Assembly: GCA_041736305.1 (NCBI GenBank)
Contig: JBGSTX010000041.1
Location: forward strand, 1 to 28,312
Reading direction: 5' to 3'
DNA length: 28,312 bases
DNA from: Oligoflexus sp.
GTDB lineage: Bacteria; Bdellovibrionota_B; Oligoflexia; Oligoflexales; Oligoflexaceae
The notes beneath the pieces were generated by a model, which saw only the letters and a program-made list of their open reading frames with translations, did not search any database and was not told where the DNA came from. This document shows, piece after piece, positions 1 through 2,281 of this stretch; the first letter of the stretch is position 1; each line of letters begins with the position of its first letter. Made by a program: the position numbers and the translations under genes.

Positions 1-141
1 AGTATCCCAAGGTGCCTATGTCATTCACCAGTAACGTAGCCCTGTCGCCAGGACTGAGACTAATCAATCAAGAGCTTGGAAATTTGCTTCCTCCTTTCCA
101 AGCCCTACCCATACCCTTCAGGGTTGGGTGGGGTGATTGAC
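1..141 (-). ncRNA. 5' part of a HEARO/omegaRNA-like structured RNA scaffold (OMEGA IscB/IsrB type), truncated by the window edge
   Basis: Minus strand from 141 reads GTCAATCACCCCACCC-AACCCTGAAGGGT-ATGGGTAGGGCTTG...CAAGCTC-TTGATTGATTAGTCTCAG-TCCTGGCGACAGGG-CTACGTTACTGGTGAATGACATAGGCACCTTGGGATACT. This follows the motif order I recognise for omegaRNAs: GTCAA..CCCC..GGGCTTG..CAAGC..TTGA.TAG..CTCAG..CTACGTT..ATAGGCACC. Nested stems are visible at 134-141/63-70, 95-103/74-82, 104-133, and a GCGA-tetraloop hairpin at 38-55. Confidence 0.82.
1..141 (-). mobile_element. End of a putative IS200/IS605-superfamily (IscB/IsrB) element continuing left of the window
   Basis: omegaRNA scaffolds begin at the element boundary (GTCAA, here at 141). 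The nuclease ORF would lie downstream on the minus strand, outside this window, and is not seen. Confidence 0.6.
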
Positions 142-219
142 TGCAGACCTTGAGAAGAGCTACTTTCCTGGGTAGAACCAAAAGATTAACGAAAAGCTCA
201 ACCGAAGCCAGGAGTAAAA

Positions 220-1509
220 ATGCGTATCGACTTTGTCGCACTCATGCTGCTTGCCAGTCTTACCCACGTCGCTTGCAAAGAGGAAAGCAGCAGCGATCCT
301 ATAGCTGATGATACTCACCATCCTTCGGTTCAAACTCCGGTCGAGTCACCGGTAGTAGTACCGGTGGTCGCGCAGTCAAGCGCTCCAGAAGCTGCAACTG
401 AGCAACCTTCTACGACTACGTCGACGGAAACTCAACCTATCCCAGTGTCGCAGCCCGTGCCACTGGATCTTCCAACGGCGGGAGAATCTTCAGTGGTGTC
501 CGGGACCACTCCTGTACCCACTCAGCCAACTACTCCTGGTGATATATCTCTTGCCGAGCAGCCTGTAGCAACTCAGCCTGTAGTAACGCAGCCGGTAGCA
601 ACGCAGCCGGTAGCAACGCAGCCGGTACCAAGCACCCCACTTCCACCAGAAGCCGAATCCTCGTCGACGGCGGCAGAGCCAAGCCCTACGGCTTTGCTCG
701 CAGTTTTCGGTGACAGTATTTCAACCGGTATACTAGCCGATACTCGACTAGGGCGTGGTATAGGTTCACGTGCAGGGGAGATCGTCGCCAAAATGTTTTC
801 TGGCGATGTGACGAGTCGCTTGGAAGCTCAGAGAGCCCTGGCTCGTCCAGAGGTGGCTGCTGTAAGCACGATGGAACCCTACGGTCTGCGAAGCAGCGTT
901 GCGCGTAAAAAGGGACTGAGCGTCGATCAGGTCGACTTCGTGAACCTCGCACAGTTTGGAGCTGTCTCAGGAGAAATTCCACTCATGCTCGACCAGTTAA
1001 AAACAGTCGAAGGTAATCTTGGAAAAAAAGCGGATGTCATCTTCATGATGCTCGGCAGCAACGATTTCTGCAGCGATAGCTCAATTGATGATTTTCGATC
1101 GAGCTACGAGAGCGGACTGGCTTATCTTCTTAAAGAACATCCCGAAGCTCATTACATTCTGACCCCGATTCCCGGCATCGATCAGCTAGCCCCCATTGAC
1201 TATACCTACATTCCAGCCTTTCCCGGAACCTCAGGGGCTATACTTAGCTGCAACACGCTGCACAAAGACTATTGCCCCCGCGTCAACGCACCTGATGCTG
1301 CAGAGCGCCTGCAAAGCATGAACGTCGTGATACTCGAAGCGGCAGAAAAAATGAAGGCACTGGTAGGCGCAGAACGCGTCACGAGTGTAACGAGGCTCAT
1401 AGACTGGCAAATTCAACGAGATCAGCTCTCTTTCGACTGTTTTCATCCCAGTGCAGACGGGCAGAGGGCCTTGGGAGAACTGATCGGCGAAGCCTTACTC
1501 GCTCCCTAA
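220..1509 (+). CDS. SGNH/GDSL hydrolase lipoprotein with long Pro/Thr/Ser-rich N-terminal stalk
   Basis: RBS AGGAG before the ATG; signal peptide with lipobox-like HVAC; block I VFGDSIS, block II AQFGA, block III LGSND, block V DCFHP. Confidence 0.9.
   Translation: MRIDFVALMLLASLTHVACKEESSSDPIADDTHHPSVQTPVESPVVVPVVAQSSAPEAATEQPSTTTSTETQPIPVSQPVPLDLPTAGESSVVSGTTPVPTQPTTPGDISLAEQPVATQPVVTQPVATQPVATQPVPSTPLPPEAESSSTAAEPSPTALLAVFGDSISTGILADTRLGRGIGSRAGEIVAKMFSGDVTSRLEAQRALARPEVAAVSTMEPYGLRSSVARKKGLSVDQVDFVNLAQFGAVSGEIPLMLDQLKTVEGNLGKKADVIFMMLGSNDFCSDSSIDDFRSSYESGLAYLLKEHPEAHYILTPIPGIDQLAPIDYTYIPAFPGTSGAILSCNTLHKDYCPRVNAPDAAERLQSMNVVILEAAEKMKALVGAERVTSVTRLIDWQIQRDQLSFDCFHPSADGQRALGELIGEALLAP
559..633 (+). 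repeat. In-frame 15-bp tandem repeat x5 encoding QPVAT-like units
   Basis: cagcctgtagcaact/cagcctgtagtaacg/cagccggtagcaacg/cagccggtagcaacg/cagccggtaccaagc. Confidence 0.95.
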
Positions 1510-1510
1510 C

Positions 1511-2281
1511 TTAGGCTTTTTTCCTGGCGGCGACCATATAGGATACGCCCCAGGGAATAGGCAGGCCGCTGAGTTGTAACGACCACTCGGCATAGGTAAA
1601 CAAGCGCAAAAAGCCATTGACCCAGCCCGGAAGCGGACGATGATCGGCACCTTCCTCAGCAGACGTACTGACGCGATCACGACCCCAGCGCCAGCGATCG
1701 CGAAGGCTGAGCAAGGCAGCGAAAGGAAAACCCCAGGCTAAGAGATGCGAGCGAAAAACCAGCTCGTAGCCTTCCGCTTCAAGCATTTTTTTCATATCGC
1801 TGGGCAGGAATCGTCGGCCAGCTGCTGTTTGCCGGTCGTGCTGTCTCCAGAGGAAGGGATAGGCCGGCTCGTTCCAGATTAGAATAGATCCAGGACTCTG
1901 CACAGCAGCCAGGGTTCTGAGCGCGAGCGCAGGATCGCTGACGTTCTGGTGATAGAGCACGCAAAGCATAACAGCGATATCGAAGCTGCCTAAATCGAGT
2001 TCACGAAGCTTTTCGATGGCTCCCGGCACGACTTTCAAATCGGGAAAGCGTTCCTCAGCTAGCGAGCGCGCAAGAGCTGAAGGCTCAATTCCAACTACCT
2101 CACCAAAATCTCGCAAGGCCGCAGTACTGCCCCCTGTTCCACAGCCGACATCGATGAGCCGCAGCCGCTCTCGCTGAGGCGCGAACTTCCGGATAAGGGT
2201 CTTAACGGCCTGCAGTCTGGCACGATAATACCAGCCTTTTTCTTCCTGCTCTGCGAGTGCTTGATAGGCAGCAGCTTCCAT
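1511..2281 (-). CDS. Class I SAM-dependent methyltransferase (glycan-cluster type)
   Basis: Motif I LIDVGCGTG, VGIE, FDIAVMLCVLYH; N-terminal E..W.Y.AR and PAY.FLW..HD motifs typical of this subfamily; starts immediately after the epimerase stop. Confidence 0.9.
   Translation of the reverse strand: MEAAAYQALAEQEEKGWYYRARLQAVKTLIRKFAPQRERLRLIDVGCGTGGSTAALRDFGEVVGIEPSALARSLAEERFPDLKVVPGAIEKLRELDLGSFDIAVMLCVLYHQNVSDPALALRTLAAVQSPGSILIWNEPAYPFLWRQHDRQTAAGRRFLPSDMKKMLEAEGYELVFRSHLLAWGFPFAALLSLRDRWRWGRDRVSTSAEEGADHRPLPGWVNGFLRLFTYAEWSLQLSGLPIPWGVSYMVAARKKA

Follow-up and report, generated by a model that had tools for sequence, protein, structure and literature searches.

RNAs encoded by a transposon or at another locus can serve as scaffolds that programme a RuvC or RuvC-HNH nuclease with a short adjoining guide, as in the TnpB omegaRNA (reRNA) and the crRNA:tracrRNA of Cas9. 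In TnpB systems the RNA overlaps the gene at its 3' end and has the guide on the 3' side, and the guides of Cas9 come from an array, whereas the RNA described here has a single flank on its 5' side at the guide position. This RNA is of the HEARO type (Rfam RF02033), the omegaRNA of IscB nucleases, and lies at the very start of a 28,312-nt stretch of Oligoflexus sp. DNA (assembly GCA_041736305.1, contig JBGSTX010000041.1). The whole stretch, hereafter the window, is the entire contig C214 of a source assembly of 5.02 Mb and 392 contigs. Read on the minus strand, window positions 141 to 1 very probably constitute the first half of a true IscB omegaRNA, encoded at one end of an IS200/IS605-type (ISC) element that extends leftward out of the window. 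The element would end between positions 141 and 142, and positions 142 to about 160 (minus strand) would be the guide. For IscB systems, a guide length of about 16 nt was reportedly given by Altae-Tran and colleagues in 2021, who are also said to have made statements on stand-alone omegaRNAs.

ISC elements belong to the IS605 superfamily as non-autonomous members that depend for mobility on Y1 transposases acting in trans (Kapitonov et al. 2016, PMC4810608). Passages of a preprint by Meers et al. (10.1101/2023.03.14.532601) describe excision of IscB elements by TnpA, cleavage of the empty donor site by the flank-guided nuclease and restoration of the element by recombination. The same passages report read-through transcription in many IscB elements and a HEARO-like region at the right end of the transposon, and also that iscB seldom adjoins tnpA and that protein-less PATE-like derivatives exist (legend to Extended Data Fig. 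2e). One review calls the HEARO-bearing end 'LE', which is a matter of orientation convention only. HEARO or omegaRNA, IscB, ISC elements and PATE-like derivatives are thus all in print; the window RNA is a routine example of a described family, and nothing reported here alters existing knowledge of that family. The lineage seems little sampled for HEARO RNA, and the genome adds a little-sampled compact pair of omegaRNA and nuclease (IscB-1, 377-394 amino acids (aa)) together with a second IscB family.

The order of elements in the window RNA is that of HEARO and of the OgeuIscB omegaRNA, namely a closing helix with a three-way junction, a pseudoknot strand, a GNRA hairpin, CUACGUU and a long-range helix. 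As in these systems, a variable 5' flank occupies the guide position, and uncut paralogues lie directly upstream of an IscB open reading frame (ORF) on the same strand. Such a co-oriented ORF is present in contigs C219 and C254 of the source assembly and in L039, a 2339-nt sequence from another metagenome-assembled genome (MAG); contig C59 carries the RNA without an ORF, and the window contig ends at base 1. The window RNA differs from RF02033 in that it holds model positions 1-107 of 211 only. As in ISC and IS200/IS605 IscB transposons, there are multiple copies that contain no transposase gene, and Y1 genes are found at other loci of the genome. One end is sharp and the guide position falls outside it, the other end is flanked by a short motif that appears conserved, and a related strain has an empty site. 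Particular to this locus are a predicted TTTAN target or target-adjacent motif (TAM) on the top strand and mobilisation for which the Y1 fragments of the source assembly are only candidates.

The HEARO scaffold

In a 400-nt search run in E-value mode, the HEARO model aligned to window 141..1 on the minus strand with 40.9 bits (E = 3.4e-7). The match was flagged as cut at its 3' end, and the next best Rfam families on this fragment had E-values above 4. An earlier note, made from the letters of the sequence, had read this strand as the 5' scaffold of an omegaRNA (HEARO) of IscB/IsrB nucleases and had listed a three-way junction, a GNRA hairpin, CTACGTT and ATAGGCACCTTGGGA; the match agrees with that assignment, all of the listed motifs are present where they had been placed, and they are genuine rather than the product of chance. 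Two short ORFs lie over the stretch (3..140, plus strand, 45 aa, open-ended; 68..241, minus strand, 57 aa), and ORF-based pipelines do miss the RNA, as the same note had foreseen.

The fragment has a minimum free energy (MFE) of -52.7 kcal/mol, which is lower than that of 199 of 200 dinucleotide shuffles (z = -2.96). Hairpin b and the inner two of the three helices of hairpin a appear in both the MFE fold and the centroid fold. The centroid fold also contains the complete GNRA hairpin and six pairs of the closing helix P1, shifted by one base relative to the Rfam alignment (2-7 with 73-78, not 1-8 with 72-79; scaffold positions are read on the minus strand, from window 141 down to 1). Relatives carry the GNRA loops GAAA and GCAA at the position of the GCGA loop of the window, and the partner strand of the pseudoknot is present in full-length paralogues.

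Base pairs were counted in 11 copies of the window type (A type, see below), collapsed to nine distinct sequences, over four helices of the window fragment with all three helices of hairpin a included. Standard pairs occupied 285 of the 288 pair cells. Two pairs of the GNRA hairpin have changed on both sides and are still paired, from U-G to A-U at 89/102 (C254) and from C-G to U-A at 91/100 (C219). Six of the eight P1 pairs are invariant, pair 6/74 varies and pair 8/72 was counted one base out of register. The secondary structure of the HEARO scaffold is backed by this conservation and covariation of pairs. When 13 diverse 5' halves were aligned with MAFFT without guidance, RNAalifold found no more than P1 and one three-pair stem (nine pairs in total), because this alignment is not structural; the pair count on the A-type copies was used instead. 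The features of the window and the related copies are collected in Table 1.

Table 1. Features of the omegaRNA in the window and of related elements in the source assembly; locations without a contig name are window positions.
Feature	Location	Strand	Basis or remark
5' half of IscB omegaRNA (HEARO) scaffold, 3' half past contig start	1..141	-	HEARO covariance model (CM); paralogues 96-99% identical at 100-125 bits
P1 closing helix, 5' strand GTCAATCA, first bases of element	134..141	-	CM alignment; start of all 12 copies, unrelated sequence before
P1 closing helix, 3' strand TGATTGAT, closes three-way junction	63..70	-	CM alignment
Hairpin a, first of three-way junction; three CCC/GGG helices, UGAA loop	103..132	-	CM alignment; folds; pair count
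Hairpin b, second of three-way junction, CTTGGAAA / TTTCCAAG	75..102	-	CM alignment; MFE and centroid folds; pair count
Pseudoknot 5' strand as marked in HEARO model; partner in absent 3' half	56..60	-	CM structure line
GNRA hairpin, GCGA tetraloop	38..55	-	CM alignment; two compensatory pair changes among copies
CTACGTT	33..39	-	Read in sequence
Long-range helix, 5' strand after CUAC; partner past contig start	25..35	-	CM alignments of window and full-length paralogues
ATAGGCACCTTGGGA	5..19	-	Read in sequence
Next hairpin, 5' strand (GC, then CCUUGGGAU); loop and 3' strand past contig start	4..15	-	CM alignment; continuation in C310, C59, L039
Putative guide flank, about 16-20 nt directly 5' of scaffold	142..161	-	Layout of IscB omegaRNAs in passages of the Meers preprint; presumed transcribed
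TTGAC, last bases of transposon end; putative transposon-encoded motif	137..141	+	Shared boundary in 12 copies; X3 empty site has TTTAC there
A-type copies beginning with identical 141-mer	C214 (window), C265, C19
A-type copies, contig ends inside the 141 nt	C26, C2
A-type copies, contig ends slightly further into element	C310, C88, C295
A-type copies, uncut and internal	C59, C219, C254
A-type copy, internal, first ~136 nt only, then diverges	C216:1309-1449 (L012)		29.6 bits; no match at gathering
B family, complete ~407-nt mini-elements	C342:16528-16766; C371:29319-29557		113.9 bits; 103.6 bits
B family, 5' parts	C79, C80, C143, C65, C12, C363
B family, 3' parts joined to own far end	C179, C178, C68
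Y1 (IS200-type) fragments, one repeat family	C337 (2942-3130); C300 (8-112); C53 (11289-11372)
Y1 (IS200-type) fragment, degraded	C165:10755-10937		5 stops

Copies in the genome and the element boundary

A blastn search with the 141 nt found 12 copies in the source assembly, here called A type. The uncut copies score 134.8 (C219), 125 (C59) and 116.4 bits (C254) with a HEARO gathering score of 83 bits, and the scores of the cut copies are proportional to the length left (C265 and C19, 40.9 bits; C88, 56 bits; C295, 38.4 bits). Contig C310, which is 99.3% identical to the window over the 141 nt, is cut later and still reaches 100.6 bits. C219 and C254 are more distant copies, with 91-92% scaffold identity to the window. 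The first 24 nt of the scaffold were found in just one other species-representative genome, the MAG that holds L039, and two scans of JGI metagenome contigs gave no match to a 41-mer or a 24-mer of the scaffold.

Every A-type copy opens with GTCAA(T/C)CACC, and the preceding 60 nt are unrelated in each. A sharp start at GTCAA or GTAAA after unrelated 5' sequence is found in 12 of 12 A-type copies and in 7 of 7 copies of a second family, B. The 20-nt flank 5' of the scaffold in these 19 copies has a full-length match only at its own locus in the genome. A sharp start with a unique flank outside it is the pattern expected of a transposon end whose flank serves as guide. A second target for the window guide was sought in the genome and nothing above chance was found, the best being a 14-nt perfect match (E = 0.11). 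The guide flank of another copy (C143:234-253) has a 17-nt perfect match at C29:7829-7845 (E = 0.002), which lacks the two scaffold-proximal bases and is probably no target.

The partner nuclease

In C219 and C254, an ORF begins about 40 nt past the HEARO match. The two ORFs encode proteins of 377 and 394 aa with 78% mutual identity, which are shorter than OgeuIscB (495-496 aa). Their N-terminus reads MVYVLSK(T/S)GKPLMPT, and the corresponding ORF of L039 has GKQLMPT. Pfam searches assigned the domains RRXRR (1.8e-55 and 4.8e-54) and HNH (2.5e-5 and 4e-5) to the C219 and C254 proteins, respectively. The C254 protein, the sole ORF searched, matches solved IscB structures such as 7utn and 7xht at about 1e-49 (best 5e-50), and in the 11hr alignment its residues fall at points that we take to be the RuvC and HNH motifs. 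Because HNH is present, the partner nuclease is, as judged from the protein sequences, IscB rather than IsrB.

The omegaRNA of L039 scores 120.2 bits, and its scaffold is identical to that of the window at 138 of 141 positions. It is followed by an IscB ORF with RRXRR (6.7e-56) that runs off the contig, and upstream of it is the tail of another IscB. Between the two IscB-1 elements of L039 stands one host gene (1748..1023), whose reading frame extends into the first bases of the omegaRNA scaffold; both ends of this contig are inside IscB.

Searches with tblastn and with Pfam RRXRR found only two IscB-1 genes in the source assembly, those of C219 and C254, and RRXRR nowhere else. Contig C341 stops 146 nt inside an A-type far end; the portion present covers the final codons of IscB and is 94.6% identical to the far end of L039. 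This genome therefore has at least one further IscB-1 body that was not assembled. The impression of two IscB genes against about 20 omegaRNAs was also considered and was set aside as partly an assembly artefact, as C341 holds a third IscB-1 tail and C109, together with C217, C255, C30 and C31, represents a second IscB.

Protein-less mini-elements

The element of C59 is about 408 nt long. Its omegaRNA starts 7 nt after the stop codon of a co-oriented upstream gene and is followed by a terminator-like hairpin and a segment of ~110 nt, after which the next host gene begins; there is no IscB. The same ~110-nt segment follows the IscB stop codon in C254. A second mini copy is present in C194 (element positions 127-408, 96.8% identity). 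Similarity stops right after NTAAA on the RNA-sense strand in all six A-type far ends (C59, C194, C254, C182, C341 and L039). Three solo pieces of the A-type far end were seen that have no adjoining omegaRNA (C182:27104-27220, C84:11289-11331 and C83:10674-10784).

Seven protein-less mini-elements of ~400 nt were seen in the two families, and the right-hand ends in the source assembly comprise eight of the IscB type and seven of the mini type. In the relative G009, HEARO and far-end matches lie only about 365-490 nt apart (C8:14578-15069 and C32:13063-13428), and such spacings suggest mini-elements in further species of the genus. The earlier note had placed either an IscB/IsrB ORF or an omegaRNA-only element to the left of the window. 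Both kinds exist in this genome for this scaffold (C219 and C254; C59 and C194), and the part of the proposal that does not stand is IsrB. The checks that the note had suggested gave a significant HEARO covariance-model match cut at the contig start, ORFs with PLMP and HNH at the paralogues C219 and C254 (the left flank of the window itself being beyond the contig start) and, by BLASTN, 12 scaffold copies in the genome, which is on every count the opposite of what the note had named as speaking against it.

The mini-elements resemble the PATE-like derivatives described in passages of the Meers preprint, since C59, C194 and the family-B copies are ~400 nt long and have both transposon ends and no protein gene. 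A feature of the copies described here is that C59 (125 bits), C342 (113.9 bits) and C371 (103.6 bits) keep a complete omegaRNA above the gathering score, the published PATEs having been compared by their description in those passages. It is conceivable, if rather doubtful, that mini-elements with such omegaRNAs and guides of their own have been selected to borrow IscB in trans, a few nucleases serving about twenty guides, and that they are hyperparasites. If so, these elements would obtain homing protection without the cost of a nuclease, and the genome would present a natural state of one nuclease and many guides, part-way to a CRISPR-like arrangement, in which the window copy could be one guide. 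A limited literature search found no description of omegaRNA-only mini-elements used in trans, and no priority is claimed. The omegaRNA-only mini-elements could serve to test the use of guides by IscB in trans.

Break of the contig inside the element

The window and two other contigs start on one and the same 141-mer, and C310 departs from the window at element position 74 and extends to 215, which is 74 + 141. We infer from the shared contig starts and the end of C310 a repeat break of a de Bruijn assembly with k = 141; the cut is therefore technical, the assembler having broken the contig inside a multi-copy element. The HEARO identity explains the contig end here and likewise accounts for some 20 further contigs of the assembly that break off in the same two repeat families.

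The public run X1, labelled hot springs metagenome, holds 0.87 of the sampled words of window 1-1200. It contains a 166-nt contig with a depth of 59.7 that is mismatch-free over window 1-67 and extends 99 nt past the left edge, and the depth of the unique flank is 5.3-7.7. This contig suggests that the window copy reaches the end of the HEARO model or goes beyond it, and the depths point to roughly 8-11 near-identical copies, summed contig depth being a rough guide only. Little or none of the stretch was present in runs X2, X4 and X5, and none of the runs found to contain it is registered as RNA.

Empty site, predicted target motif and proposed cycle

A relative about 95% identical in the flank was found in run X3 (coded 'organism A'). 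Record 16 of this run, a contig of 1121 nt, matches window 140-587 and then continues for 671 nt unlike the scaffold. At the joint, TTT and AC precede window position 142, so that the top strand reads TTTAC/TGCAG in X3 and TTGAC/TGCAG in the source assembly. In a related strain this locus therefore lacks the element, and the joint coincides with the element boundary within two bases (window 140-142). The 12 copies, with their differing flanks, occupy different sites, and the X3 locus adds an insertion polymorphism. The 20-mer guide flank of the window is present in the X3 empty site, and on the RNA-sense strand the site consists of a match to the guide followed by GTAAA, in agreement with NTAAA at the other ends. 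Six far ends and one empty site suggest TTTAN (top strand; NTAAA in the RNA-sense direction) as the target or TAM, and the natural empty site thus predicts both guide and TAM. The 30-nt loose end of the empty site, which would represent the host DNA on the left, has no match with up to three mismatches in the source assembly or in 13 other genomes of the genus.

Four matches to PF01797 (Y1_Tnp) were found in the source assembly (Table 1). Three are clearly above the cut-off and lie at, or a few bases from, contig ends, and one is degraded. These Y1 fragments are candidate helpers.

In the proposed cycle, the RNA would be transcribed from the flank into the element, and its scaffold would bind a nuclease of the IscB-1 type, made from the gene directly downstream or, if this copy is a mini-element, supplied in trans from another copy. 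Excision of the element by a Y1 transposase would rejoin the empty site, in which the guide match precedes GTAAA on the RNA-sense strand, and this site would then be cut. Repair of the break with a sister copy still carrying the element as template would keep the element in place. An empty site of the X3 type would be the natural target of the window guide.

Alternative explanations

The HEARO match, the paralogues above the gathering score, the linked IscB genes, the sharp boundary and the empty site together make an IscB omegaRNA the best reading of window 1..141. Several observations weigh against it. Over the entire window, Rfam gave no match at gathering scores (83 bits for HEARO versus 40.9 bits found), because only half of the RNA is present, the match breaking off where both window and contig start. 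The 3' half, with the pseudoknot partner and the protein-binding parts, is outside the window and for this copy rests on collapsed metagenome contigs, and no contig carrying the opposite end of this copy was identified in the source assembly. Contig C216 indicates that dead truncated copies occur, and no Y1 fragment is linked to these IscB element ends. A scan of window 1-600 detected neither a sigma-70-like promoter nor a terminator, and the neighbouring ORF 220-1509 is divergent, so that, unlike C59 and L039, this copy has no upstream gene from which transcription could read through.

A chance resemblance, or another element such as a protein-coding fragment or an unrelated structured repeat, would suit the short ORFs that overlap the stretch and the score under gathering. 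It has a negligible probability and is already refuted by the HEARO E-value, with no other family better than E = 4, and by the paralogues above gathering, the linkage to IscB and the compensatory base changes. The stretch could also be a dead truncated relic that consists of the first ~140 nt of the scaffold with unrelated DNA to its left. C216, which keeps about 136 nt and looks like such a relic, offers a precedent, and its divergence point falls near the start of C214. In X1, however, exact window 1-67 occurs only in the contig that runs 99 nt further left, and the C216-type branch is a separate contig with three mismatches; three contigs on the same 141-mer and C310 at 74 + 141 fit an assembler break. 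A relic is accordingly very improbable here.

Within the preferred reading, the window RNA may belong to a full element or to a mini-element, and the choice for this copy is about evenly balanced. A full element would measure about 1.7 kb in total and have an IscB-1-type iscB gene directly behind the omegaRNA, its body having been lost as near-identical copies collapsed; this has somewhat under an even chance. The nearest scaffold outside the genome, that of L039, precedes an IscB, the far end of C341 reveals at least one unassembled IscB-1 body, and, the smallest contig being 1663 nt long, the assembly may have lost a collapsed repeat body at this length limit or in binning. Yet only two IscB-1 genes are assembled, both on more distant copies, and the right-hand junctions of the close A-type copies include only one of the IscB type (C341) beside one of the mini type (C194). 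A comparable likelihood, again just short of even, is given to a protein-less PATE-like mini-element of ~408 nt, made up of the omegaRNA, the terminator-like hairpin and the other end, with IscB and TnpA supplied from elsewhere. C59 is an element of this kind and shares its far end with the IscB-bearing C254, C194 is a second copy, family B has two complete and three partial mini-elements, and mini-sized spacings between HEARO and far end are also seen in G009. A collapsed body of 408 nt would moreover lie under the contig minimum. On the other side, the window scaffold is slightly closer to the IscB-linked L039 (138/141) than to the mini-element C59 (136/141), and just one A-type mini right junction (C194) is known versus eight cut left junctions; the close A-type copies have yielded only two right-hand junctions in all.

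Second family and distribution of HEARO RNAs

The omegaRNA of family B begins at GTCAACTACC, and many copies of the family are cut by contig ends. C109:2-724 (L060) begins inside a C-terminal fragment of 241 aa of a divergent nuclease, IscB-2, with HNH (3.2e-12) and matches to TbaIscB (1e-12) and HfmIscB (6e-10). The N-terminal part of IscB-2 and its omegaRNA are not assembled with C109. The far end of C109 is common to four contig ends (C217, C255, C30 and C31). In six relatives, proteins of the IscB-2 type (64-77% identical) lie behind B-like omegaRNAs, and A-type RNAs go with IscB-1. By this pairing, the C217/C255/C30/C31 family was ruled out as the missing far end of the window's subfamily.

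Genome-wide searches with Rfam HEARO gave 14 matches in the source assembly, the highest number in a set that included 20 relatives; those outside the A type belong to family B. Matches were found in 9 of the 21 genomes searched, the source assembly included; 8 of the 12 other genomes of the genus have 1-8. None was found in 8 genomes from other families of the order or in 14 control genomes.

Other observations

The orthologues of ORF 220-1509 in the genus are only 36-41% identical. This ORF contains PVATQ-like repeats (window 560-640), at which the summed contig depth rises in X1 (10.2 vs 5.3) and in X3 (56.9 vs 8.3), as expected for a repeat common to other genes or organisms.

Contig-end families F4, F5 and a third with 23 ends were considered as part of the finding and were ruled out as other, unrelated insertion sequences. 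They represent two further insertion-sequence families with inverted-repeat-like termini that break many contigs, namely F4/F5 with seven ends each (for example C147, C204 / C107, C243) and the 23-end family (for example C122, C362 and C374).

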